Source: Bacteroidales bacterium
GTDB taxonomy: Bacteria; Bacteroidota; Bacteroidia; Bacteroidales; CG2-30-32-10
Assembly (NCBI GenBank): GCA_050013795.1
Contig: JBEKEO010000002.1
Location: 1 to 51,191 of the forward strand
Reading direction: 5' to 3'
Length of the DNA: 51,191 nt
In this document: positions 1 through 47,135 of the stretch, in pieces
Position numbering within the stretch: position 1 is the first letter of the stretch
How the letters are laid out: every line of letters starts with the position of its first letter
Notes under the pieces: generated by a model
Told to the model about the DNA's origin: nothing
Database searches by the model: none
What the model saw: the letters and a program-made list of their open reading frames with translations, nothing else
Program-made: the position numbers and the translations under genes

Positions 1-916
1 CGCCGCAAGGCGGGAGGGTTTTTATTAGCTGGCCTTGAATGTTAGTTATTTCAATTACTGCTTCCTGCCTACTGCCACTGCCTACTTCTTCTTGTGGGCT
101 TTCTATTGTTAAGTTATTTATAGTAGGATTAGGGTAAATTTTAATTTCATTATTTAAAAATATTTCATTGATTCCAACCCCATAACAGCCACTTTCATTA
201 TAAAGTGCAGCAATTTCGCTAGTATTCAGGGCACGATTATATATGCTGATATCGTCAATTTCGCCAGGTGCATATCCGCTGAATGTTGGGTCGCCGCCAA
301 AGTACAGTGGGGTATTATAGGAATTAATCTGTCCGGTAACTGATTTGGATTCAATCAGGTTGTTATTCACATAAAAATTCAAATAACTCCCATCATAGGT
401 GCATGCCAAAAAGTACCAGTTACCTGCAGTCCAGAAACCATTACTTGTTCCTTCCATATTAGCTGTACCGTTAGTTGTAACACAACAACCAAACGAATAA
501 TATGCAGAAGCTGAATGATTACCGCATACTATTAGTTTATATTGATAATAGGGAGCAGCAAAAGAAGTATAATCTTTCGTAACAATGGGGTCAGAACCGG
601 AACCTATAAAATCTTCTGAATAATACCAGGCACAGACACTAATAGCATTTTGTGGATTTAGCGCTGAGGAATTAGCAACTGTAATATAAGCGCTGCTGCC
701 GTTAAAATAATATGCGCTATTTGCACCGCCAAATCTGTCAGTAGCCAGAGTTGCACCGTTTAAAGAGCCGTTGTAACCATGACCACTTTCGTCGTTAGCA
801 TTTCCGCTAAAACAATATCTTGCAACAAGTCCGCTATCAAGTTTAACCTGTGCAAATGCACTGCTCAAGCCAATAATGGCGAGTATGATTGATAATAAAG
901 TAATTTTTGTTTTCAT
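1..916 (-). CDS. LamG-like jellyroll protein with T9SS type A sorting domain (3' end runs off window)
   Basis: Absent from ORF track; manual translation from ATG at 916: MKTKITLLSIILAIIGLSSAFAQ..GLVARYCFSGNANDESG..DRFG..GEIDDISIYNRAL..IKIYPNP..LIKTLPPCG; open to position 1. Confidence 0.85.
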   Translation of the reverse strand, partial: MKTKITLLSIILAIIGLSSAFAQVKLDSGLVARYCFSGNANDESGHGYNGSLNGATLATDRFGGANSAYYFNGSSAYITVANSSALNPQNAISVCAWYYSEDFIGSGSDPIVTKDYTSFAAPYYQYKLIVCGNHSASAYYSFGCCVTTNGTANMEGTSNGFWTAGNWYFLACTYDGSYLNFYVNNNLIESKSVTGQINSYNTPLYFGGDPTFSGYAPGEIDDISIYNRALNTSEIAALYNESGCYGVGINEIFLNNEIKIYPNPTINNLTIESPQEEVGSGSRQEAVIEITNIQGQLIKTLPPCG

Positions 917-1033: not shown

Positions 1034-2692
1034 TTATTCCTTAATAAACTTCTTCACCTCTACCCCTTTTTCAGTTTTCACCTCTACTATATATACCCCA
1101 CTTGGTAATGCCGAAACATCTATGTTTGTTTTATTACTTGTTGTTGCACCTGCCTCGCCGCAAGGCGGGAGGGTTTTTATTAGCTGACCTTGGATGTTAG
1201 TTATTTCTATTACTGCATTCTGCTTACTGCCAACTGCCGCTTGCTGGATTTCTATGGTTAGGTTATCAGTGGTGGGGTTGGGATAAACAGAAACATAAAA
1301 TGAATTACTTAACTCATTTATTCCTGTAACAATAATTGCAGCAGAAGTTGCAGAACAAGCGTTTGAATAGGTTACTGTAACTGAATAATTGCCTGGACTA
1401 AGGGGTGCATAGAATTGCCCTGTTGCGCCGATAATCGGATTACCATTCAGATTCCATTGATAACTTGCACCGGCTGTTGAAAATAATATACTTCCACTTG
1501 GTGTAATTACAGGTTTGGAAGCAGTGTCAACTGTAATAATAAGCGATGAAGTTGCTGTATAGCCATTCGCATCCGTAATAGTTGCAGAATAGCTTGTTGT
1601 ATTTAAAGGGGAAACGGTTTGACAAGAAGAGGTAACGCTATTGCTCCATAAATATTGATAAGGGGGTGTTCCTCCCGAAGCATAAACACAAATTGTTGTA
1701 TCGTTTCCTTTACAAATATTTGCATTGCCGCTTGTATAACTATAAGGATGTTGTTTATATGTGGAAATATAATTTCCTGATCCAGTTGGACTGGCGCCAA
1801 CCATAATTGTAGTTGTAACCATATTTGTTGCTGTGTTTATTACACTTACTGAATTAGCGCCATAATTTGTAATATATGCCTTACTTCCATCGGGACTAAA
1901 ACTTACACCCCAAGGGCTGGATCCTACTGTAATTGTAGTTGAAACAGTATTTGTAACCGTATTTATTACATTTACAGTATTATTACTTCTAATTGTAACA
2001 TATACCTTACTCCCATCAGGGCTCACTGATAAAGTACAAGGCTCTGAATCAACCGGAATTGTAGCCGTAACAGTATTTGTAGTGGTATTTATTACACTTA
2101 CAGTATTAGCAATATAATTATTAATATATAATTCTTTATGTATACTTATAATGCCTGCACCAGCACCAACCGGAATTGTAGCCGTAACATTATTTGTAGC
2201 ACTGTTTATTACCATAAGCGTAGCATCACTATAATTCGAAACATAAATCTTGCTTCCATCTGGGCTCACAGATATACCTATAGGATTATTGCCAACTACA
2301 ATTGTAGCCATAACCGTATTTGTAGCTGTGTTTATTACATTTACTGTATTATCATTATAATTCGTAACATATACTTTGCTACCATCAGGGCTGACGGATA
2401 CACCACAAGGACTATTACCAACCGGAATTGAAGCTGTAACAGTATTGGTTGCAGTATTTATCACACTTACAGAACCAGGATTATCATTATTCGTAATATA
2501 TACCTTACTTCCATCTGCACTTACAGATACTCCATAAGGATTAGTGCCAACCGGAATTGTAGCTGTAACAGTATTGGTTGCTACGTTAATAACTGATACA
2601 GTATTACTACTGGAATTTGTAATATAGGCAGTTTGAGCATTTGTTATCAAGCCAATAATGGCGAGCATAATAACAATGTATATTTTTTTCAT
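1034..2692 (-). CDS. YVTN-family beta-propeller repeat protein with T9SS type A CTD
   Basis: Signal peptide; repeats of VSVINTATNTVTATIPVG..PxGVSVSPDGSKVYVTN; YPNP..G-Y..KFIKE CTD. Confidence 0.9.
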   Translation of the reverse strand: MKKIYIVIMLAIIGLITNAQTAYITNSSSNTVSVINVATNTVTATIPVGTNPYGVSVSADGSKVYITNNDNPGSVSVINTATNTVTASIPVGNSPCGVSVSPDGSKVYVTNYNDNTVNVINTATNTVMATIVVGNNPIGISVSPDGSKIYVSNYSDATLMVINSATNNVTATIPVGAGAGIISIHKELYINNYIANTVSVINTTTNTVTATIPVDSEPCTLSVSPDGSKVYVTIRSNNTVNVINTVTNTVSTTITVGSSPWGVSFSPDGSKAYITNYGANSVSVINTATNMVTTTIMVGASPTGSGNYISTYKQHPYSYTSGNANICKGNDTTICVYASGGTPPYQYLWSNSVTSSCQTVSPLNTTSYSATITDANGYTATSSLIITVDTASKPVITPSGSILFSTAGASYQWNLNGNPIIGATGQFYAPLSPGNYSVTVTYSNACSATSAAIIVTGINELSNSFYVSVYPNPTTDNLTIEIQQAAVGSKQNAVIEITNIQGQLIKTLPPCGEAGATTSNKTNIDVSALPSGVYIVEVKTEKGVEVKKFIKE

Positions 2693-2763
2693 GGCTTTAT
2701 TTGTTCAATGTTCAACGTTTAAAGTTCAGGGTTGCCCACTGCCTACTGCTCCTGCCTACTTTC

Positions 2764-5109
2764 CTATTCTTTTACAAATTTCTTCACCTCTATGCCTTTC
2801 TCCGTCTTCACCTCCACCACATACACCCCGCCTGGGAATGCTGAAACATCTATGTTGGTTTTATTGCCTGTTGCTGCACCTGCCTCGCCGCAAGGCGGGA
2901 GGGTTTTTATTAGCTGGCCTTGGATGTTTGTTATTTCTATTACTGCCGCTTGCGGGCTTTCTATTGTTAGGTTGTTGGTGGCAGGGTTGGGATAAATCTT
3001 TATTAGATTAGAGAAATTTTGTTCATTTATTCCTGTAATAATATTAGGAACCACTTCTACAGTTATTATTGAATTTGTAGATTTCGACAAATACGCAGAA
3101 GAATCGCAATAGGTGCTTGTGCATCCTCCGGAATCGGTAATACTGAGACAAATGGTATAGTATCCTGCCGTACTATATATATGCGATGGGTAAGCAATAC
3201 TATCGTGAGTGCCATCGCCCCAGCTCCATAAATATTTTAATGGCGGAATACCTGTTGCATAATTAGTAACATAGTAAAGATGTGGCGTTGTTATATCGGG
3301 GGCTATTGTAAATATAGCTGAGCAACTCATTGCTATCATTTCAGATAGAGATCGTTTCCAAACACCTAAACCATTGGTTCCAGCAAGAATAGTGTCTCCA
3401 TTTAAAGTCAAGGCTGTTATTTTATTACTTGTTAAACCTGCAGTGACCCAACTACTGCCATAATTAGTAGAAATATATACGCCGTTATTTGTTCCTGCAA
3501 GTATGTTACTCCCATTCACAGTTAATGCGTTAACACAAGTATCTGTTAAGCCCAAGTTCATTTTAGTCCAATTTGCACCATCGTTAGTTGTTAAAAATAT
3601 ACCTCCGGCAGTTCCTGCTATTATATCCGATCCACTAGCAACTAATGCATTAACGGTTGTATCTTTTAAACCATTATTCACTTCATTCCAGTTTGTGCCA
3701 TTATTATTTGAAAAAAAGACTCCATTGCCATTTGTACCAGCAAAAACATTTGTTCCGTTAACTGCTAATGAAGTAACATCGCGAATACTCCAGAAACCAG
3801 AAATCATTGGGCTCCAAGATGCACCATTGTTAGTGGATAAATAAACAAAACCAGTACTACTACCTGCAAAAATATCGGGACCATTTGCAGCTAATGCATA
3901 GACCACATCATATGTTAAACCTGCCGCAGACCAAAGCTGCCCATTGTTTGATGACAATTCAACCCCACTATAGGTTCCAGCAAAAATATTGCTCCCACTT
4001 ATAGTTAATGAATAGGTTCCCCCTGCTGGCTCGGCAGACCAAAACTGACCATTGTTTAAAGATTTATATGTACCGCCATAATAATTAGAAGCGAAAATGT
4101 TGTTACCACTTATTGCGAATGATGTAATATCACTATTTACAAAGGTTGTGCTTACTGCGTAATTCCAATTGCTTCCATTATTTAAAGACCAAAATACACA
4201 ACCGTTACTAGTGCCTGCAACAATATTATACCCGTTTATGGCTAATGAGCGAATGTTAGTATCTAACAATCCCGAATTCTCAGCTGTCCAATTTCCACCG
4301 TTATTGGTTGATAAAAAAACACCATCATTAGTTCCTGCAAATATATTATTACCGCTTATGGTTAATGCAAAAATTTGCCGTCCTGCAGAAGTTGTTAAAC
4401 CTGTATTAACCTTAGTCCAGCTTGCGCCATTATTAGAAGACAAAAAGACACCGGCTCCTATACAATCACCTGCAAAAATGTTGTTCCCACTTATGGCAAT
4501 TGACGAAATATAGGCAGCTGTTAAGCCTGTGTTAGCTGCCGACCAACTCGAGCCATTATTAAATGAGCGGAAGATGTGTCCACTCGAAGTCCCGGCAAAA
4601 ACAGTATCTCCCTTTATAGCTAATGAACGAATATTTGTATCTAACAATCCTGTATTCACAACTGTCCAATTACCGCCTTTATTGGTTGACAAAAAGACTC
4701 CGTTTCCAGTCCCTGCAAAAATGTTATTCCCGCTTATTGCTAATGACATGATATTAAGGACTGTTAAACCTGTATTCTCCGCAGTCCAACTGCTACCATT
4801 ATTTGTAGATAAAAATACGCCATTATAAGCAGTTCCTGCAAAAATTGAATCTCCGCTTATCGCTATTGTTTCAACTTCATTATTGGTTAACCCTGTATTC
4901 ACAGCAGACCAATTATTGCCATTGTCTGAAGATAAATACATACAACCAGCATAATATAAACTCCCAGTTGTTCCAGCAAAAATATTCCCCCCGCTTATAG
5001 AAATACAGTTTATTTGTCTATAAATAGGACCATTAGTTTGATGCCACTGTGCATTTGCAAAACTCACTACACTTGCAAATGCAATAAGAAATAAAAGTTT
5101 TTTACTCAT
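2764..5109 (-). CDS. BNR/Asp-box beta-propeller protein with PKD domain and T9SS type A CTD
   Basis: Many IFAGT..GVFLSxNNGxxW repeats; YLWSWGDG..HIYSTAGYYTICL PKD motif; CTD. Confidence 0.88.
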   Translation of the reverse strand: MSKKLLFLIAFASVVSFANAQWHQTNGPIYRQINCISISGGNIFAGTTGSLYYAGCMYLSSDNGNNWSAVNTGLTNNEVETIAISGDSIFAGTAYNGVFLSTNNGSSWTAENTGLTVLNIMSLAISGNNIFAGTGNGVFLSTNKGGNWTVVNTGLLDTNIRSLAIKGDTVFAGTSSGHIFRSFNNGSSWSAANTGLTAAYISSIAISGNNIFAGDCIGAGVFLSSNNGASWTKVNTGLTTSAGRQIFALTISGNNIFAGTNDGVFLSTNNGGNWTAENSGLLDTNIRSLAINGYNIVAGTSNGCVFWSLNNGSNWNYAVSTTFVNSDITSFAISGNNIFASNYYGGTYKSLNNGQFWSAEPAGGTYSLTISGSNIFAGTYSGVELSSNNGQLWSAAGLTYDVVYALAANGPDIFAGSSTGFVYLSTNNGASWSPMISGFWSIRDVTSLAVNGTNVFAGTNGNGVFFSNNNGTNWNEVNNGLKDTTVNALVASGSDIIAGTAGGIFLTTNDGANWTKMNLGLTDTCVNALTVNGSNILAGTNNGVYISTNYGSSWVTAGLTSNKITALTLNGDTILAGTNGLGVWKRSLSEMIAMSCSAIFTIAPDITTPHLYYVTNYATGIPPLKYLWSWGDGTHDSIAYPSHIYSTAGYYTICLSITDSGGCTSTYCDSSAYLSKSTNSIITVEVVPNIITGINEQNFSNLIKIYPNPATNNLTIESPQAAVIEITNIQGQLIKTLPPCGEAGAATGNKTNIDVSAFPGGVYVVEVKTEKGIEVKKFVKE

Positions 5110-5169
5110 AATGTTTTTGCTTTATAATGTATTCGTGAATACTTCGTATTTCATAGCTTACTGTTTTGT

Positions 5170-7227
5170 TTATTCCTTAATAAACTTCTTCACCTCTACT
5201 CCTTTTTCAGTTTTCACCTCTACTATATATACCCCACTTGGTAAGGCTGAAACATCTATGTTTGTTTTATTACTTGTTGTGGCACCTGCCTCGCCGCAAG
5301 GCGGGAGGGTTTTTATTAGCTGGCCTTGGATGTTTGTTATTTCTATTACTGCCGCTTGCGGGCTTTCTATTGTTAGGTTGTTAGTTGCAGGGTTGGGATA
5401 AACAGCTATATTGCCAGCATTATTATTTATCTCATTTATTCCTGTTGTCATAGGTGAATACTCCCAAACACCGCTACCGTATGTTCCGGCTAAAATAGTA
5501 TCATTTCTTTTTAATAATGAATAAACTGAGGCCGCATAGCCTGTTAAACTACTTGAATTCACAGCTGCCCAGTTGCTGCCATTATTAGTAGACACGTATA
5601 CCCCCCCAACACCACTGTATGGAACTCCAGTTCCCGCTAAAATAGTATCCCCTTCTATGACTAACGTATTAACGTTGGTATTTGTTAAACCAGTATTTAT
5701 AATTGACCAAGTACTACCACTATTCTTAGACCTGAATACACCGTCACCACCAGTACCCGCAAAAATATTTTTCCCATTTATGGCTAATGATTTAATAGGT
5801 TTATGATTAGTAATAGCCGAACTCATTAAAGTATCCCAACGGTTGCCATTGTTTGAAGAAAAATGTACGCCGCCAGCACTACCTGCATAAATAGTGTCTC
5901 TGCTAGTGCTAAAGGCTAATGCATAAATATAAGGATTGGTTAAATTATTATTCACTGCATTCCAAGTACCTCCATTATTAGTTGATAAATACACACCATT
6001 ACCACCAGTTCCTGCAAAAATCTTATTTCCATTTACCACTATTGCATAAGTTTCATATGTTAAGTTTGTAGATGCCCAACTATTGCCATTGTCAGAGGAC
6101 AAATAAATACCACCCTGTGTCCCTGCAAAAATAGTATCCCCTTTTATTGCAAATGCATTAACTTGTGTATTTTGCAAGCCTGTATTCAACATAGTCCAAT
6201 TATTTCCATTGTCTGTAGAAGAAAACACACCACTATAAGTACCAGCATAAATATTATTTCCTTTAGTGGCGAATGCATTTACAATTGTGAAAATTATACC
6301 ATTACTTTTCGGAGACCAGCTGCTTCCATTATTTGAAGATAAAAATACTCCGTTTCCCCATGTACCTGCGAAAATGTTGTTCCCATTTATAGCTAAAACG
6401 ACTCCAAGACCCCAGCTTAATCCTGTATCCGCTGCTGTCCAAGTGCTTCCATAATTTGAAGACAAAAATACACCACTAGAAGTCCCGGCAAAAATATTAT
6501 TTTCGTTTATGACTAATGACCTGACTTCAACCTGTGCTAGATTTGAAGGTAATCCGGTATTTACTGCATTCCAGGTGCTTCCATTATTTGAAGATAATAA
6601 TATTCCGTTTCCAAAAGTTCCTGCAACAATAGTATCGCCCTTTATGGCAATCGACATAAAATCATCACTTCCTAATCCTAAACAATTCCAAGTGCTTCCA
6701 CCGTTTGTAGATGAATACACTCCATACCCATCAAGTGCCGCAAAAATACTATTTCCCCTTATGGCTACTGAACCGATATTTGATGATGACAAGCCTGACA
6801 AAGACCATGAGTTTCCATTATTTGTAGTCATATAAACTCCGGGGCTTGTCCCGGCAAAAATAGTGTCTCCACTTGTACTTACGGCTATTGTATTGATAAA
6901 AAGATTTGAAAATCCTGTATTCACCGCTGTCCAACTGCCCCCATTATTTGTCGATAAAAACATGCCATTACCACCTGCAAAAATGTTGCTCCCGCTTATA
7001 GCTATTGCTTGTATATTTTTGTTTGTTAAACCTGTATTCACCGCCGTCCAATTAGTTCCATTGTTAGTTGACAAAAATATACCATTATCAGTGCCCGCAA
7101 AAATATTGCTTCCGCTTATAGCGATACATTGTATATTTCCACCACAAGGACCATTAGTTTGCTGCCACTGCGCTTTTGCGTTCAAGCCAATAATGGCGAG
7201 CATAATAATAATGTATAGTTTTTTCAT
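5170..7227 (-). CDS. BNR/Asp-box beta-propeller protein with T9SS type A CTD
   Basis: SxNNGxxW repeats throughout; paralog of 2764-5109 lacking the PKD domain; CTD. Confidence 0.88.
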   Translation of the reverse strand: MKKLYIIIMLAIIGLNAKAQWQQTNGPCGGNIQCIAISGSNIFAGTDNGIFLSTNNGTNWTAVNTGLTNKNIQAIAISGSNIFAGGNGMFLSTNNGGSWTAVNTGFSNLFINTIAVSTSGDTIFAGTSPGVYMTTNNGNSWSLSGLSSSNIGSVAIRGNSIFAALDGYGVYSSTNGGSTWNCLGLGSDDFMSIAIKGDTIVAGTFGNGILLSSNNGSTWNAVNTGLPSNLAQVEVRSLVINENNIFAGTSSGVFLSSNYGSTWTAADTGLSWGLGVVLAINGNNIFAGTWGNGVFLSSNNGSSWSPKSNGIIFTIVNAFATKGNNIYAGTYSGVFSSTDNGNNWTMLNTGLQNTQVNAFAIKGDTIFAGTQGGIYLSSDNGNSWASTNLTYETYAIVVNGNKIFAGTGGNGVYLSTNNGGTWNAVNNNLTNPYIYALAFSTSRDTIYAGSAGGVHFSSNNGNRWDTLMSSAITNHKPIKSLAINGKNIFAGTGGDGVFRSKNSGSTWSIINTGLTNTNVNTLVIEGDTILAGTGVPYSGVGGVYVSTNNGSNWAAVNSSSLTGYAASVYSLLKRNDTILAGTYGSGVWEYSPMTTGINEINNNAGNIAVYPNPATNNLTIESPQAAVIEITNIQGQLIKTLPPCGEAGATTSNKTNIDVSALPSGVYIVEVKTEKGVEVKKFIKE

Positions 7228-7242
7228 AGCTTATTGTTTTGT

Positions 7243-8523
7243 TTATTCTTTTATAAACTTCCTCACCTCTATGCCCTTCTCCGTTTTCACCTCCACAATA
7301 TAAACCCCACATGGCAATGCTGAAACATCTATGTTTGTTTTATTGCTTGTTGTTGCACCTGCCTCGCCGCAAGGCGGGAGGGTTTTTATTAGCTGACCTT
7401 GGATGTTAGTTATTTCTATTACTGCATTCTGTGGGCTAACTATTGTTAGGTTATTTGTGGCAGGGTTTGGATATATCATTAAATTTTGCTTCGGATTTGT
7501 ATATTTCTCCCAAACAGAAGTTGGAGAATACAGATTAATTGTATATACTTCCTGCCCAGCTAAAGCCATACCTATAGAATCATTTACAAAAAATATTTTA
7601 TAAAATGAACTTAAGGTGCTGGTAGTGTCTTGATGCCATGTACTTCCGCCGTCAATGGTTCTTATTATTTTACCTGAATCTCCTGCAACAAAACCGATTG
7701 TATCATTTAAAAAATAAATGGAATTTAAATTCACAGTTATTCCTGTGTTTAAATATTGCCAACCAGTGCCTCCATTTATAGTTTTAATCATTTTTCCTGA
7801 ATCGCCCGCAGCAAATCCGACATTTGCAGAAATAAAAAACATCTTTCTAATATTCATTAAACTATCATCAAAAACATTCACCCAATTGGTTCCAGCTGTC
7901 ACTGATTTTAAAATTAAATGATTATTTGAATTCAATGAATTATAGGCTGCAATATATCCTGTGGCAGTGTCTGGGAAAAACATTATCTGTGGGGATACCG
8001 TAGTAAATGTGTCTATATTATTGGTTACAATACCGTTTATATATTTACTAATATAAAAGGGTGGGCTAAATCTATAATAAAGTAAAAATAAATGTGATAT
8101 ATCAGTAGCTGAAAAGTCCTGATAATACCCACCTTCACCTAAAACCTGATCCCAACTGGCCCCATTATTACTCGATTTGTCAATATAAATGATACCTTGC
8201 CAATTTCTAATATGAAAATATGTGTTTTGATTTCTGACTACTTCAATTGCTAAAGAACTTATTCCCATATCTGAATCATAATAAACATTACTCCAGGTAT
8301 TGCCATTGTCAATAGTAGCTTGTATATAAACAGAACTATTATCTGGTGACGGATCCCAATTATAACTATACATACCGGAACTAAGTGAAAGAAAATTTGC
8401 ATCACAAAAAGTGCCACTAAAGTATGGTTCAATAAAAGTGCTTAAGTATAAGTAATTATTCCATTGTGCATTAACCTTCAAGCCAATAATAGCGAGCATA
8501 ATAACAATGTATATTTTTTTCAT
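7243..8523 (-). CDS. YCF48-like beta-propeller protein with T9SS type A CTD
   Basis: LNSIYFLNDTIGFVAGDSGKIIRTIDGGSTW repeats; signal peptide; CTD. Confidence 0.85.
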   Translation of the reverse strand: MKKIYIVIMLAIIGLKVNAQWNNYLYLSTFIEPYFSGTFCDANFLSLSSGMYSYNWDPSPDNSSVYIQATIDNGNTWSNVYYDSDMGISSLAIEVVRNQNTYFHIRNWQGIIYIDKSSNNGASWDQVLGEGGYYQDFSATDISHLFLLYYRFSPPFYISKYINGIVTNNIDTFTTVSPQIMFFPDTATGYIAAYNSLNSNNHLILKSVTAGTNWVNVFDDSLMNIRKMFFISANVGFAAGDSGKMIKTINGGTGWQYLNTGITVNLNSIYFLNDTIGFVAGDSGKIIRTIDGGSTWHQDTTSTLSSFYKIFFVNDSIGMALAGQEVYTINLYSPTSVWEKYTNPKQNLMIYPNPATNNLTIVSPQNAVIEITNIQGQLIKTLPPCGEAGATTSNKTNIDVSALPCGVYIVEVKTEKGIEVRKFIKE

Positions 8524-8915: not shown

Positions 8916-8962
8916 AAAAAAACCTGCCTACCTTGTCGGTAGACAGGCCTTTCGGCAGGTTT
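8916..8962 (-). terminator. Hairpin/terminator after the 8984-9820 gene containing a CCTGCC..GGCAGG-type palindrome
   Basis: AAAAAAACCTGCCTACCTTGTCGGTAGACAGGCCTTTCGGCAGGTTT; U-tract on minus strand. Confidence 0.65.
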
Positions 8963-8983: not shown

Positions 8984-9820
8984 TTAAAGTATCACCACAT
9001 ATATCCATCCATCCCATATATAAGGGTCGGGGGAAGTATAGCTGAAAATGGGATGATTTTTCTTGCTTACAGGTAATTTAGTTGCTTTCTTAAGTTTTAC
9101 AGGCGTAATCACTATCGGAATTTTAGAATGCCTGACGGGTATTATGCCTGCATGGTTAATAGCCAATATGGTTCCGCTGGGAAGGTCGTTAATTTCAATA
9201 GTGCATTCCAATGAAACATAATCCACGCAGTTTGCTTTTAAAGGGATCATTCCTTTAGATGTAACTATGGCACAACGGAACAAATGCCCTTCCATACCTT
9301 TTACAGCTTTCCTGGCATGCACCTTTATCCATCCGGGACCTGCATCAGTTACCGCAAAATCGGGCTGCGTACTGGTTGATTTCTTGGCTAACCTGCCACC
9401 GCAACCGATTGCCAGAGTAACCCCGTCATTAACATTACCGCTGGCCTCTGCGACATCATTCACAGCGCCCTTCATAAACCTGATGACCTTGTTATACAGG
9501 TCAACTGTTATTCTTTTCTGTGATTTCACCTGGCTGGTGGTGTAGGTTTGCGGCCTCAGCTTCGAGCCGGTAAGCATGGTTAACAGCAAATTTGCGGCAT
9601 TATGCACCATCACATCGGTGGTGGTACAACCGCTCATGGCAGCAACACCGGTAGTTTTCAGGGTCAATCCTTCGTTTATCACTATTTCATCAGGATCGCT
9701 GTACTTAAGTTCAAGAATGTTGATCTTGGGAAGATTTTTAATTACTGACAGCATGATAAATGTCATTACAAATCTCTGTTCATAACAGAGTGGTTCTGGT
9801 TTTAAAATTTTTGTTTTCAT
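8984..9820 (-). CDS. Hypothetical cytoplasmic protein, predicted helical N-domain plus FN3-like C-domain
   Basis: 278-aa ORF with no signal peptide; amphipathic helical first half, then GPGWIKV..IEINDLPSG..WDGWIYVVIL resembling Bacteroidota FN3-containing hypotheticals. Confidence 0.6.
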   Translation of the reverse strand: MKTKILKPEPLCYEQRFVMTFIMLSVIKNLPKINILELKYSDPDEIVINEGLTLKTTGVAAMSGCTTTDVMVHNAANLLLTMLTGSKLRPQTYTTSQVKSQKRITVDLYNKVIRFMKGAVNDVAEASGNVNDGVTLAIGCGGRLAKKSTSTQPDFAVTDAGPGWIKVHARKAVKGMEGHLFRCAIVTSKGMIPLKANCVDYVSLECTIEINDLPSGTILAINHAGIIPVRHSKIPIVITPVKLKKATKLPVSKKNHPIFSYTSPDPYIWDGWIYVVIL

Positions 9821-10328: not shown

Positions 10329-10679
10329 CTTACACTTGCTTTAGCCGTTTCAAGTGGGTTGGTTTATTTCCGACTTGTGCTAAAAAAGTAAAGATGCTAC
10401 ATAGAATTCTTTTTAGTGGATACTTATTGACACACAAAGATACAACATTTATTTGCAAAAGTCAAGAAATTTGATAAATATTTTTATTATAATTGGAAAG
10501 GCGGCAAAATGTTTGCAAAAACGATGTGATTATGGGAAATAAAATTTGTCGGAAATGTAATAGGGTCATGTTTTTCCGACTTGCTTTCTGCCTGCTCTTT
10601 GCATGTTTTCTGAATTTATCAAAGAAAATGGTACGTAATGATTATGTGGGAATAGAAATATTGTTTTTAAGAAATAAAT

Positions 10680-10747
10680 CAGGTGTTTCACCTGTCGTTT
10701 TCAGGCGTTTCCCTGTTGTTTGCAGCCCCCTGCAAGAGGTAACTTTG
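10680..10747 (+). promoter_or_regulatory. Palindromic operator CAGGTGtttCACCTG, a degenerate second copy, and -7 TAACTTTG
   Basis: Palindrome 10680-10694; CAGGCGTTTCCCTG at 10702-10715; TAACTTTG at 10740-10747. Confidence 0.6.
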
Positions 10748-10798
10748 TTACGGAAACAATACGAAAAAGAAATCAAAACAATTCAAAATCTTATAGCC

Positions 10799-11926
10799 AT
10801 GAAAACAACAGATAAAATAAAAATTCTTCCGCTCTTTGCACTTGTGCTGCTGCCTTTTTCTAATATATTTTCTCAATCTTCACCGGGATCTGATGGCACA
10901 GTTTTTACAACTGTTGCACTGGCAGGGAGTTCGGCATCATGGAATAATCCGGCAAACGCAGCTACCGAAAACGGAATTTATTCCAGTACCGACAATATTG
11001 CTTCGAACGGAGATTATTCTGATTATTTGGTTGCCACAGGTTTCACATTCAACATTCCTGATAATGCAAGGATCACAGGTATTGAAGTTACTTTCTATAA
11101 AAATTCCGATAATTTGCCACATACCCACGACCATTCTGTAAGAATTATTAAGGGAGGAACAATAGGAGGTGATGAAAAAGCTTTTTCTTCTTCATGGGAG
11201 AAACAAGGCAATCCGGTTGTTTATGGAGGAAACAACGACCTGTGGGGCGAAACATGGACTCCTGCCGATATTAATTCGGATAATTTTGGTATTGCCTTAT
11301 CTGCTGAAAGGCAGGGAAACGGAGGAGGTTCGATGAGTGCAGAAATCGACTATATTAAAATAAATATTATTTATGATTTCGGGCTGCCAATTGAACTGTT
11401 AAGTTTCAATGCACTTCCTTCAAATGGTTCGGTATTACTCAAATGGGTTACTGCTTCCGAAACCAACAACGATTATTTTACTATTGAGAGATCGGCAAAC
11501 GGAATGGATTTCAGCACTGCCGGAACTGTTGCCGGAGCCGGTAATTCAAACAATTTAAAGGAATACAGTTTTACTGATGAAAATCCTTTCAGTACAATCT
11601 ATTACAGGCTGAAACAAACCGATTTCAATGGTGCTTTTACATATTCGGATATTATACTTGTCACCACATCCGGAAACAAAACGGCAGGTGTCGGAGTAAA
11701 TGCAACCGACGGGATATTGCATGTTACGGTTAATAATGCCGTTGCCGGTCCTCTGCAGGTAAACATATTTAATACTGCCGGCGCCCTTGTTTACGGCACC
11801 GAAACTCATATTGGCAGCGGCAGCAGCACGGTTGACCTTTCTACTTCATTGCCGGTAAGCATTTATATTGTAAAGGTCAGCATGAACAATATGCAACCTG
11901 TAACCACCAAAGTTTTTATGAATTGA
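10799..11926 (+). CDS. Secreted protein with T9SS type A CTD
   Basis: True start probably ATG 10799 (MKTTDKIKILPLFALV signal peptide, downstream of promoter); LPIELLSF..WVTASETNNDYFTIERS..YYRLKQTDFNG motif; CTD. Confidence 0.85.
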   Translation: MKTTDKIKILPLFALVLLPFSNIFSQSSPGSDGTVFTTVALAGSSASWNNPANAATENGIYSSTDNIASNGDYSDYLVATGFTFNIPDNARITGIEVTFYKNSDNLPHTHDHSVRIIKGGTIGGDEKAFSSSWEKQGNPVVYGGNNDLWGETWTPADINSDNFGIALSAERQGNGGGSMSAEIDYIKINIIYDFGLPIELLSFNALPSNGSVLLKWVTASETNNDYFTIERSANGMDFSTAGTVAGAGNSNNLKEYSFTDENPFSTIYYRLKQTDFNGAFTYSDIILVTTSGNKTAGVGVNATDGILHVTVNNAVAGPLQVNIFNTAGALVYGTETHIGSGSSTVDLSTSLPVSIYIVKVSMNNMQPVTTKVFMN

Positions 11927-22227: not shown

Positions 22228-22301
22228 GGGGCGTTAGCTCAGTTGGCTAGAGTGTTAGACTGGCAGTCTAGAGGTCATGGGTTCGACTCCCATACGCTCC
22301 A
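22228..22301 (+). tRNA. tRNA-Ala (GGC)
   Basis: GGGGCGTTAGCTCAGTTGGCTAGAG..CT-GGC-AG..GGTTCGACTCC..ACGCTCCA; G3:U70 pair. Confidence 0.96.
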
Positions 22302-22306
22302 CAAAC

Positions 22307-22367: not shown

Positions 22368-22388
22368 CCTGCCTCGCGGCAAGGCGGG
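22368..22388. repeat. Intergenic copy of the 21-bp palindromic element
   Basis: CCTGCCTCGCGGCAAGGCGGG, 20/21 identical to the insert in the T9SS CTDs. Confidence 0.85.
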
Positions 22389-22726
22389 CAGTGGCTGACT
22401 GTCTGACGAGATAATATTTTTAATTTTCGCTTAAATCTATTCACAATAATATAAAGTTTCCACCTTTTGGTAAAGCAATTCATCGAAAAAAATTTAGTCG
22501 AAAGGCATAAATTATATTGCTTTTAAGCCAATTAACGCATAATTTATGGCTGTTTTTGCCACATTGCAGCTAATTACTGTTTAAACATTCGCAATTTTTC
22601 TTAATGTTGGTGTGATACCCGTTGGTATCGCTGCGCAAACAATTGGTGAGGTGATATAACCAACCGGTAAGACAATGTGAACTTTGGTTGCGATGTGATT
22701 ATGACGATATAAGACAGGGAAAAAGG

Positions 22727-27615: not shown

Positions 27616-27678
27616 ATTGCTTGCCTCGCCTTCGATAAGTCGAAGCCTGCCTCGTTGGCAAGACGGGCGGGAAGCAAT
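27616..27678. repeat. Nested palindromic elements
   Basis: ATTGCTT..CCTTCGA-taag-TCGAAG[CCTGCCTCGTTGGCAAGACGGG]CGGGAAGCAAT. Confidence 0.6.
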
Positions 27679-37530: not shown

Positions 37531-39156
37531 TTATTGAGAAATCAGTTTACCTGTTTGAATGGTTTTGTCATTGCCAATCACTTTGTAGAAATAAATTCCG
37601 GAAGAAATATTACTTGTTTTAAGAGTGGTTAATTGTTTCAAGATATTTGTATTCATCACTTCTTCACCCAAAACATTATATATCCTCAATTCATAATTGC
37701 TGATTTGGGTTGCATCGTTAATCATTATGGTTACAGAACTATTAAATGGATTAGGATAAATTGTAACCATTTCATTTGTTGCATCAACCGGCTTAATATC
37801 TACCGTTATACAATCTCCGGGTACCATTGGAGCAAAAACATGAACAGAATCGGTTATTAAAGTGCCTACGGTTGTGAGTATTCTGCCATTAATTGCAACG
37901 CCTTTCAATATGGAAACTGCGGCATCGGAAACCATCGTTCCGTTAAAAACTGAATGGTCACTTATTTGCACAGCACCATTTACCATCCAATATATATTTT
38001 TTGCCTTTGCCCCGTTAATCAATATTACTTTTGAATAGGTGCTCGTTGAAAGGGCGCCGTTTAACCGAAGAATAAATACAGCATTGGTGTCATTTAGTGC
38101 ATTTAGGTAAAGTGTATCTGTAAATGTAGTAGCACCGTTCATGACATAAGTATGAGGTGTAAGTACCAGGTTATTCCCAAACTGAGCAGGATACAACAAC
38201 TCAATATTATAATGCGCTGTGTCCAGATAATTATAAACATTAAGCAAATCTGCACCACACGCAGCTGTAGCACTATTAGGTATAGTATCAATTTTTCCTG
38301 TTACAAGTAAAGGATTAAAACCCGTAGTTAAGCCTACATTTGTGCCAACATCACCGACAACATGCGTTACCAGGGAGTTTGTAACAGCTCCATCAGATGA
38401 AAATATTGCAAAGCAGGCAACGGTGTTAAGGTTTGGTGCAGTTGGTCCTGTAAGAACAGGACTGCCGCAACCGATGGGGGTATATGCCAGCACTCCTGCA
38501 ACAGTAACTCCCCCGTCTGTAGTAAGCGCTCTTCCTTCAAGCGTGTCGCCGGTGTTTATTTCAATTGCTGCATTGTTAGCAATAACAGTTCCCCTCATGG
38601 TAGTTCCCGTAGCCATGATTATCTGACCTTCCACTTTCCAGAACACCTTACATGCCTGTGCTCCGTTAATCAATTTAACCTTTGAACCGGCGCTTGTAGA
38701 AAAAGCCCCTCCGATTTGAAAAATAAATACAGCATTTGCATTTCCTTTTGCATTTAAAATAAGGTTTAAATTCAGCGTTGCTGCTGCAGAAATAGAATAT
38801 ACTCCCGCAATAAGGGTATCCCCGTTTCCAAGAGTTGGTGAAGGGTAGAAAGTAGGTATAGCTATATTCAGTGAGTCATAAACTTTCAACAAATCTACTG
38901 CGCATTGTGCACTTGCAGCATCCTGATCGCACATGATACCGTTCACGTTACCGAAATTGGTACTGGAGCCAACGTTAGAACCTACATTACCTGTAAGTTG
39001 AGAGATACCAGTGTTGCTAACTGCGCCATCCGACGAAAAGAGAACGAAATTGGCAACAGTTCCCAATGGAGGAGCATGTTGTGCAAAATTTAATGTTGGT
39101 ATCAATAGCAGTATAACTGCTGTTAATAGTACTTTGAATGTAATAATTTTTTTCAT
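37531..39156 (-). CDS. Ice-binding-like protein: 2x DUF3494 with T9SS type A CTD
   Basis: Two DUF3494 domains (NANAVFIFQI..KVFW; LTPHTY..KNIYW); IYPNPF..SGIYFY..GKLISQ. Confidence 0.9.
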   Translation of the reverse strand: MKKIITFKVLLTAVILLLIPTLNFAQHAPPLGTVANFVLFSSDGAVSNTGISQLTGNVGSNVGSSTNFGNVNGIMCDQDAASAQCAVDLLKVYDSLNIAIPTFYPSPTLGNGDTLIAGVYSISAAATLNLNLILNAKGNANAVFIFQIGGAFSTSAGSKVKLINGAQACKVFWKVEGQIIMATGTTMRGTVIANNAAIEINTGDTLEGRALTTDGGVTVAGVLAYTPIGCGSPVLTGPTAPNLNTVACFAIFSSDGAVTNSLVTHVVGDVGTNVGLTTGFNPLLVTGKIDTIPNSATAACGADLLNVYNYLDTAHYNIELLYPAQFGNNLVLTPHTYVMNGATTFTDTLYLNALNDTNAVFILRLNGALSTSTYSKVILINGAKAKNIYWMVNGAVQISDHSVFNGTMVSDAAVSILKGVAINGRILTTVGTLITDSVHVFAPMVPGDCITVDIKPVDATNEMVTIYPNPFNSSVTIMINDATQISNYELRIYNVLGEEVMNTNILKQLTTLKTSNISSGIYFYKVIGNDKTIQTGKLISQ

Positions 39157-46678: not shown

Positions 46679-47135
46679 CCTAAATTTTCCAATTTCTATT
46701 AATTTCATTCCCAACCGCCTGCCGGCAAGGCAAGCTTGTTCTCAAATCAAAAACATAAAATTCACTCACTACCTCACCTAAAAAAGCCTTAATTTCTGGC
46801 GGATTGTAAGGAAATGCAATAACCTTATAATGATTGTGCATATTATTAACCGAATACTTCAAAGAACTATGCCGAAACTGGAAATTATTAGAATGAGAAC
46901 GTTTTTAACTCTGTAGGAATTAACAATGTGTAAAAGGTGAAGTAATCTACACAAAAACCGTAAATAGGTCACTATAAAGGTTAAGCAATAAGTAAGTTAT
47001 GCATAAAGCGACAAAAAAATATGAGTTTAAAAATTAAAAAAACTTATAAAAAATTATGTTTACTGCAAAATTACTAATGAATTCTATAAAAATCGACGTT
47101 TCGCCTATATACCTTATACCTGTAAACCTCTAACG

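Follow-up and report, generated by a model that had tools for sequence, protein, structure and literature searches.

The window analysed here, a stretch of 51,191 nucleotides (nt) from a Bacteroidales bacterium, opens with five tandem minus-strand genes that carry one short palindromic element within the part of each gene that encodes a secretion tail. Four of the genes are complete and encode a YNCE-like beta-propeller (gene 1, 1034..2692), a Sortilin/BNR protein with PKD (gene 2, 2764..5109), a second Sortilin/BNR protein (gene 3, 5170..7227) and a BNR-type propeller (gene 4, 7243..8523), each ending in a C-terminal PF18962 (Por_Secre_tail) match of 52-60 bits. The fifth (gene 5, 2..916), whose 3′ end is cut by the contig end, encodes Laminin_G_3 and the start of a PF18962 tail, scoring 25.1 bits against a cut-off of 27. 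By their PF18962 match and seven-strand beta-sandwich these tails are type A C-terminal sorting domains (CTDs) of the type IX secretion system (T9SS). The element, CCTGCCTCGCCGCAAGGCGGG, matched exactly on the minus strand at 1149..1169, 2879..2899, 5285..5305 and 7358..7378, in the tails of genes 1 to 4 respectively, for a chance expectation of zero from shuffled sequence. A fifth copy, of which the contig end leaves the 3′ part of the 21-mer (1..14, minus strand), lies in the tail of gene 5. In gene sense the copy of gene 1 is CCCGCCTTGCGGCGAGGCAGG; each full copy is translated as (L)PPCGEAG and lies 115 nt upstream of its stop codon.

A free-standing intergenic copy, CCTGCCTCGCGGCAAGGCGGG, identical at 20 of 21 positions, was found at 22368..22388, 65 nt past a tRNA-Ala(GGC) gene (22228..22302, plus strand). 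No nuclease gene was present at this tRNA, and same-genus synteny stops at its 3′ end, leaving no empty-site counterpart for comparison. All these positions bore out the original prediction, which had been made from the letters of the window alone. It had further listed relatives at 27646, 8923 and 46715. Palindromes do exist there, but of a looser CCTGCC...GGCAGG type: a degenerate intergenic 22-nt form nested within a larger ATTGCTT..AAGCAAT palindrome (27646..27667), a degenerate intergenic form, CCGCCTGCCGGCAAGGCAAG (46715..46734), and, on the minus strand, a CCTGCC-type hairpin that leads into a T-run (8923..8947), which lies after the gene at 8984..9820 and looks like a terminator.

Within the window the five tandem genes are the only carriers. 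The tail of the minus-strand gene 37531..39156 (tail at 37534..37770) lacks the element, as had been predicted; a second type A tail said to lack it, in a "gene at 10799", was misplaced and belongs to the plus-strand open reading frame (ORF) 10493..11926, also without the element. The stronger claim that every T9SS CTD carries it was refuted on the genome scale. We searched one tail by tblastn against the whole assembly, G000 (325 contigs, 3.48 Mb, 37% GC, 86% complete), and obtained 126 matches, 120 of which spanned the site; about 10 of these 120 had the element or a derivative.

The site-spanning tails revealed a precise insertion. An exact 7-residue gap at the site was found in 42 of the 120 matches, and close paralogues have the empty-site DNA AAAACCCT|TGCAACA. 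Related tails read ...AAA ACC CTT GCA ACA ACA... where the array tails read ...ACC CT[C CCG CCT TGC GGC GAG GCA GG]T GCA..., so that removal of the 21-mer restores CT|T GCA, exactly as predicted and as many paralogues read. In an AlphaFold model built from 25 tail sequences (predicted local distance difference test score, pLDDT, 86; seven strands), the inserted residues 39-45 fall within a loop spanning 39-50, the least confident block of the model, flanked by strands 34-38 and 51-55. The window insertion site is the beta4-beta5 loop of the type A sorting domain.

Elsewhere in the genome, tails were found with copies close to, but not at, the array site, which are read in other frames and face the opposite way. 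Three such copies, at C32:3367 (read PASQQGG), C46:2198 (read TCLPARQ) and C229:4797 (nested in another palindrome), each correspond to a clean 21-nt gap in paralogues. In the tail on C187 the array site is empty (LIKTL|VTN) and an element-like sequence sits in another loop. Two candidates from the congener G001 did not withstand inspection: an apparent inverted copy at the identical tail site (G001:C49) is an independent insertion in another tail subfamily, and the extra length of the longer G001 tails is a different insert in another loop.

The same precision was seen outside tails. In a GH92 gene (C12), whose catalytic domain is interrupted by the insert PALPAGR, the insert is missing from 8 of 8 family orthologues, including the same-genus one (91-93% identity), and the empty site reads GAGCAG|CAGGTGG. 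Since the same-genus orthologue has no matching copy, the element has moved since the two species split. A DUF3352 protein (C82) has an insert in its linker that its same-genus orthologue likewise lacks. In three public peat-metagenome runs, contigs span the GH92 copy without difference, so that it is not an assembly artefact; no empty GH92 allele was found among these contigs (contigs rather than reads were compared), and in one run contigs end within the element. Across the filled and empty pairs examined in G000, junction ambiguity was 0-1 nt with no long target duplication. Six junctions compared by eye showed no consensus target sequence. We conclude that the 21-mer is a true, discrete 21-nt insertion.

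The original prediction had proposed a genome-wide motif search, and this revealed clear enrichment. The pattern CC[TC]GCC-N5-13-GGC[AG]GG occurs at 32 genome sites, 24 of them 21 nt long, against 0-1 in three simulated genomes; a stricter pattern gave 27 sites against 1 for its reversed control, about five of the 27 resembling ordinary terminators. Sixteen of the 27 lie within ORFs of at least 150 aa, compared with 84% of 2000 random windows. Copies run in either orientation and are read in several frames, giving peptides such as PASQQGG, TCLPARQ, PALPAGR and LPAGKAG, and the GGC-centred form contains zero stop codons across six frames. Besides the GH92 and DUF3352 genes, coding hosts include an Exo_endo_phos protein (C123), the N-terminus of a TonB-dependent receptor (C44) and two signal-peptide regions (C7, C178); copies in signal peptides were also found in relatives.

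These results bear on a simple alternative, in which the PPCGEAG loop is a peptide feature of one tail subfamily, inherited by duplication, and the other matches are coincidental GC-rich hairpins. The five array copies, which share site, frame and orientation in tails 80-89% identical, would fit such a history. Against it, exact or one-mismatch copies occur between genes as well as in further tails, where frame and orientation differ, the genome holds 27 sites to 1 in the control, the closest paralogues are short by exactly 21 nt, and at least 122 loci with non-random free positions are spread over many phyla (see below). The original prediction had named two outcomes that would refute it, conservation of PPCGEAG as a peptide with variable codons and a lack of enrichment of the 21-mer; neither was observed. 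We regard this alternative as having almost no chance of being correct. The enrichment and the clean filled and empty pairs instead support the proposal of a dispersed insertion resembling repetitive extragenic palindromic (REP) sequences, not a tail-specific peptide.

By our tally about 5 of some 13 independent coding insertions fall in tails, whose share of the genome is about 0.8%. We read this excess as tolerance of sorting signals that are cleaved off. It is also among the points in favour of a second alternative, in which the hairpin is locally useful, as a recombination signal for tail shuffling, a pause or termination site or a protein-binding site, and has spread by selection rather than as a parasite.

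Comparison of the four complete array genes provided further points for local usefulness. Variable columns number 0 of 21 within the element, 7 of 54 upstream (2 in the adjacent 47) and 26 of 115 downstream. The prediction that the flanking CTD codons vary therefore held downstream but not in the adjoining upstream 47 nt. Since these 47 nt are nearly invariant together with the element, the invariant block is about 70 nt long, not 21, and identity of the 21-mer within the array is unremarkable by itself. Only in the last ~225 nt are the genes homologous, at 80-89% identity; upstream of these the identity is 51-58%. Thirteen informative sites divide the four genes two by two: upstream of the element 6 of 6 pair gene 1 with gene 4, and downstream 7 of 7 pair gene 1 with gene 3. 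The grouping switches within 1136..1187 (minus strand) of gene 1, and at the corresponding columns in genes 2-4, which indicates at least one recombination event with a breakpoint in the 50-nt interval that contains the element.

Spread by CTD gene exchange, as had been proposed, is supported by the unrelated passenger domains, the confinement of homology to ~225 nt and the breakpoint. The accompanying idea of a recombination hotspot fared less well: the breakpoint interval does hold the element, but this is one event, a hint that the element favours exchange. For local usefulness there are thus the breakpoint, the near-invariance of the element with its 47 upstream nt, the tail excess and the terminator-like related hairpin at 8923. 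Opposed to it are the single breakpoint in an interval of which 60% is not element, the ~110 of 120 tails that do without it, the use of both orientations and varied loop positions, the decayed window palindromes with their ordinary folding energy, and the identical sequence in unrelated genes and other phyla. We consider local usefulness unlikely as the explanation of the spread.

The window copies are decayed palindromes. They show four differences from the master form, which has a 20-nt version, CCTGCCTGCCGGCAGGCAGG, and a 21-nt version, CCTGCCTTGCCGGYAGGCAGG. As single-stranded DNA (ssDNA) hairpins the window copies reach -7.4 and -6.7 kcal/mol (z -1.3 and -1.1, weak), and the perfect 20-mer -9.0 kcal/mol (z -3.0).

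To place the element in a wider context we examined 41 relatives, among which it is restricted to the family of the window, f1, bar one site in G024; reversed controls gave 0. Site counts within the family range from 0 to 114 (G010 114, G002 81 and G011 49, with controls of 0-1), and G000 has 9 with perfect arms. A search of one genome per prokaryotic species returned at least 122 loci; the matches listed include Bacteroidota, many Patescibacteria, Ignavibacteria, uncultured Gammaproteobacteria and Planctomycetota, besides others. Across these loci the four free (N) positions of the motif are strongly non-random, so that they hold the same element rather than chance matches. On viral contigs the 20-mer was found in 40 stretches and the 21-mer pattern in 17. 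Fifteen cross-phylum loci submitted to Rfam gave just two sub-threshold chance hits.

Some further features of these loci were observed. The base following the element is C or T at 105 of 119 loci among the matches listed. Seven loci (L049, L062, L067, L071, L083, L095 and L123), several labelled CPR (candidate phyla radiation), have 7-nt tandem arrays on both sides of the element (CAATTTC, CGAAATC, CAAAGTC and others). Three G010 loci (L219, L227, L233) have a longer conserved repeat, the CGTC-tagged palindrome CGTCATTGCGAGG...CGAAGCAATC, with the element nested in its loop; the nesting at window position 27646 is similar.

What might move such a palindrome? One possible answer is that it is an ordinary REP or REPIN mobilised by a Y1 transposase of the HUH type, either a REP-associated tyrosine transposase (RAYT) or an IS200-like enzyme, that recognises the ssDNA hairpin. 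G000 does contain four Y1_Tnp genes of this IS200/RAYT-like kind (C7:58042-58515, C226:2109-2612, C33:19864-20322 and C6:40771-41220), in G005 a 21-mer copy lies 29 nt upstream of the start codon of an IS200-like Y1 transposase gene, and REPs within ORFs are on record (PMC3733652). The neighbourhoods nevertheless tell against this answer. Nothing similar to the element was found within 1.5 kb of the four G000 genes, which carry GCTCCGTAGGAGC-type hairpins instead. Among 30 family Y1 loci the element is present at 2, and at one of these it is a copy that itself interrupts the transposase gene. The G005 gene has orthologues of 75-84% identity in which the element is missing, and no GTAG or CGTC tag was seen beside the copies inspected (by eye, with no separate count). 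On this evidence we rejected the partnership with a RAYT or IS200 enzyme, and the RAYT/HUH partner suggested in the original prediction is not supported; we judge transposition by a Y1 enzyme to be improbable.

The Y1 loci had features of their own. The four G000 genes are flanked by several small hairpins with GTAG-like cores (GCTCCGTAGGAGC, GCCCTGTAAGGGC) and look like a separate REP-RAYT-type system. At L371 (G004:C197:1-1919) the 20-mer lies near position 418, at the junction splitting a Y1 transposase gene into two frames, an apparent disruption by the element. At L007 (G005:C8:30213-33233) the IS200-like Y1 gene comes after the 3′ end of a Cas12a-like gene and is surrounded by GCCNCGTAGNGGC hairpins, and a 350-bp tandem duplication takes in the 5′ end of the Y1 gene.

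A different partner emerged from small GIY-YIG nuclease genes, surveyed at 24 full-length loci in 13 genomes of the family. Around these genes GC-rich hairpins are concentrated (22 per 12,000 nt within 250 nt, against 7 per 59,730 nt farther away), and the hairpin type is specific to each GIY-YIG protein clade. For one clade the hairpin is our element: 4 of 4 clade genes (at least 76% identity), in three genera, have the palindrome within a broken tRNA-Arg copy, some 45-50 nt ahead of the start codon. Genes on G002:C217, G004:C156 and G011:C402 (76-100% identical) share one constant layout, in which the first ~35 nt of tRNA-Arg(ACG), interrupted in the D-loop by the palindrome (AATA|GTGC), are followed by a spacer of ~20-40 nt and an 80-82-aa GIY-YIG ORF, the last codons of which run into the 5′ end of an intact tRNA-Arg. 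G011 has one more copy of the element, nested at the centre of the first. The clade proteins match PF01541 at 59-62 bits; their nearest solved chains are the UPF0213 proteins 1zg2 and 1ywl (E about 1e-3), and NCBIfam hits were sub-threshold.

Relatives of the clade in metagenomes often have a similar arrangement. A CCTGCC...GGCAGG palindrome lies within 200 nt at 40 of 80 loci, mostly at -45 to -50 from the start codon, and among the closest 22 relatives (55-89% identity) 20 have a clear palindrome and 1 a doubtful one; a tRNA gene abuts at 71 of the 80. The suggestion that a GIY-YIG gene might be flanked by the repeat thus proved right for relatives and metagenomes but not for this genome, where none was found. 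At L205 (1740-1760 and 2030-2050), L191 and L192 the GIY-YIG stop codon lies within the D-arm of the downstream tRNA, so that tRNA 5′ processing would remove the last codons of the ORF from a shared transcript. G000 has two small GIY-YIG genes of its own, C47:10880-11330 (L137/L182) and C13:33880-34300 (L138/L195), both embedded in tRNA genes and both of other clades with other hairpins. The C47 gene comes after a tRNA-Met and precedes a broken 3′ copy of tRNA-Met with TCCGCC-N4-GGCGGA hairpins at the anticodon-loop and T-loop positions.

Taken together, these results make it probable, at about 0.72, that the 21-mer is a somewhat decayed copy of a miniature palindromic insertion element, that one insertion in a tail spread by module exchange, and that the partner is the GIY-YIG clade. 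In the window it entered once, into the loop that joins beta4 to beta5 of a type A sorting domain, with ...ACCCT before it and TGCAAC... after it. The resulting tail variant, now found on the five tandem genes and on at least two elsewhere, with unrelated passenger domains, reached them through duplication or recombination of the tail module. PPCGEAG is incidental read-through, the element being translated wherever its landing place is tolerant. Cleaved-off sorting signals, T9SS tails and signal peptides alike, would gather copies because insertion there presumably costs the mature protein nothing. We infer that one clade of ~80-aa single-domain GIY-YIG nucleases has the element as its cognate hairpin. 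By analogy with the Ssn nucleases considered below, these enzymes probably recognise it as a single-stranded hairpin, and they are the best candidates for dispersing it. G000 has apparently lost the nuclease, or its gene was not assembled, and the window copies would then be fossils; their decay fits a lineage that lost the enzyme.

Several observations weigh against parts of this explanation, most of them against the enzyme. No cognate-clade nuclease was found in G000, at 86% completeness, or in its congener G001 (best identity 35-38%), and there is no link between element and nuclease within G000 itself. G010, with the most sites (114), has a gene only 50% identical and without an adjacent copy, G034 has a 64%-identical gene and zero sites, and genome-level co-occurrence of element and clade over the 41 relatives is loose. 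The gene lies beside the element in only 1 of 57 viral stretches, and some metagenome loci are duplicates of each other, so that 40 of 80 does not represent 80 independent cases. The Ssn enzymes are known to act as nucleases and are not known as transposases, and movement of the element by the nuclease stays an inference. With regard to the element itself, the folding energy of the window copies is no better than that of shuffled sequence, and the enrichment in tails could be target preference rather than tolerance. Direct repeats of 7-8 nt flank the element at 11 of 119 cross-phylum loci, among the matches listed, compared with 0.3% in shuffled pairings; such repeats were unseen in the filled and empty pairs of G000, and more than one insertion mode may exist.

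The behaviour of the element has precedents. Small dispersed repeats of cyanobacteria, 21-27 nt long, reportedly (Elhai and colleagues, 2008) contain hairpins and form discrete insertions, including in genes and structured RNAs; they have another sequence, are not known outside cyanobacteria and are not known to have a partner enzyme. Rickettsia palindromic elements (RPEs), which Ogata and colleagues (2000 and 2002) reportedly found as in-frame insertions that functional genes translate into additional loops, are reportedly ~100-150 bp long and confined to Rickettsia. Our element is no RPE, being 20-21 nt long and cosmopolitan, with a candidate partner enzyme and a T9SS-bearing host, and the likeness is one of behaviour only. 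Nor is it a miniature inverted-repeat transposable element, which has terminal inverted repeats around 70-300 bp of non-coding DNA and a fixed target-site duplication; the unit here is 20-21 nt and the junction ambiguity 0-1 nt. Di Nocera et al. 2013 (PMC3733652) also treat RPEs in their background section. There is a likeness, too, with REPs and REPINs (see also Bertels and Rainey 2011, PMC3116915), short (20-40 bp) GC-rich dispersed palindromes of lineage-specific copy number, some of them within ORFs (PMC3733652). The element differs in the occurrence of one sequence across phyla and in not being tied to Y1 genes: the flanking of a Y1 gene by repeats that marks REP-RAYT systems was found at 0 of four G000 genes within 1.5 kb and at 2 of 30 family loci.

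Among the nearest known systems is that of Ssn, single-strand-specific GIY-YIG nucleases with NTS/SRM hairpin repeats, which cut ssDNA next to these repeats (Chenal et al. 2025, PMC11893778). In both cases a single-domain GIY-YIG protein of ~80-95 aa is encoded by a gene flanked by a GC-rich hairpin repeat, the repeat is dispersed in tens to hundreds of copies, and hairpins are clade-specific (PMC11893778). A repeat flanking a single-domain GIY-YIG gene was found here at 4 of 4 clade genes in family genomes and at 40 of 80 metagenome loci, but not in G000. The genes here differ in lying within duplicated tRNA genes, with the hairpin in the broken D-loop, and in the in-frame coding copies; the word tRNA is absent from the main text of PMC11893778, and in-frame coding copies are not discussed there. 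The element does not fit the search motif for SRM repeats. The published form, HGTCWYN(0-2)YYVSBRHN(0-5)WNVSBRGN(0-2)RNCYNB (PMC11893778), has 4 matches in the whole genome and none within ±20 nt of the 27 copies. Phage T4 offers another parallel in SegB, a free-standing GIY-YIG homing endonuclease in a tRNA gene cluster (PMC2330249), which shares with the genes described here small size, an apparently selfish character and a position among or inside tRNA genes. SegB differs in cutting double-stranded DNA, in driving the homing of its own gene and in having no dispersed hairpin repeat.

Two other dispersed repeats were observed in the window. A GC-rich repeat of GGCAG(T/C) units (GGCAGTGGCAGTAGGCAG type) occurs at 65-82, about 1216-1250 and 2739-2756, and elsewhere in G000 on C1, C118, C149 and other contigs. 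It has 38 genome copies at up to 2 mismatches, mostly intergenic, and sometimes lies in frame in another tail loop ('TIE' to 'AVIE'), where it is read VGSGSRQ or similar; it was also seen in G001 tails. Downstream of the free-standing copy, ~75 nt at 22430-22507 match at least 8 places in the same-genus genome at 76-86% identity and represent another dispersed repeat.

REP-like palindromes inside genes (RPEs; PMC3733652) and GIY-YIG-associated hairpin repeats (PMC11893778) were already known. Outside subscription journals and supplements, we found no literature description of the 20/21-mer, of its tRNA-embedded nuclease partner or of its accumulation in T9SS tails. As a tentative extension, more doubtful than the explanation above, the 20/21-nt palindrome and the tRNA-riding 80-aa GIY-YIG nuclease might form a two-part mobile system, almost unchanged in sequence across more than 10 bacterial phyla and some phages. 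Few known mobile DNAs would be as small as its palindrome, which would spread in trans by way of single-stranded hairpin recognition, with cleaved secretion signals as safe landing sites, and it may seed recombination that shuffles tails.

If the pairing of nuclease and hairpin is functional, the Ssn concept would widen from a Neisseria-centred repeat to a cosmopolitan element that inserts in frame, and there would be a concrete candidate enzyme for the spread of very short palindromes. In annotation work, such inserts account for odd Pro/Gly/Cys-rich loops, and for contig breaks, in metagenome-assembled genomes. For the biology of T9SS, the sorting domain can take up seven arbitrary residues in its beta4-beta5 loop, and near-identical tails are exchanged between unrelated cargo genes.

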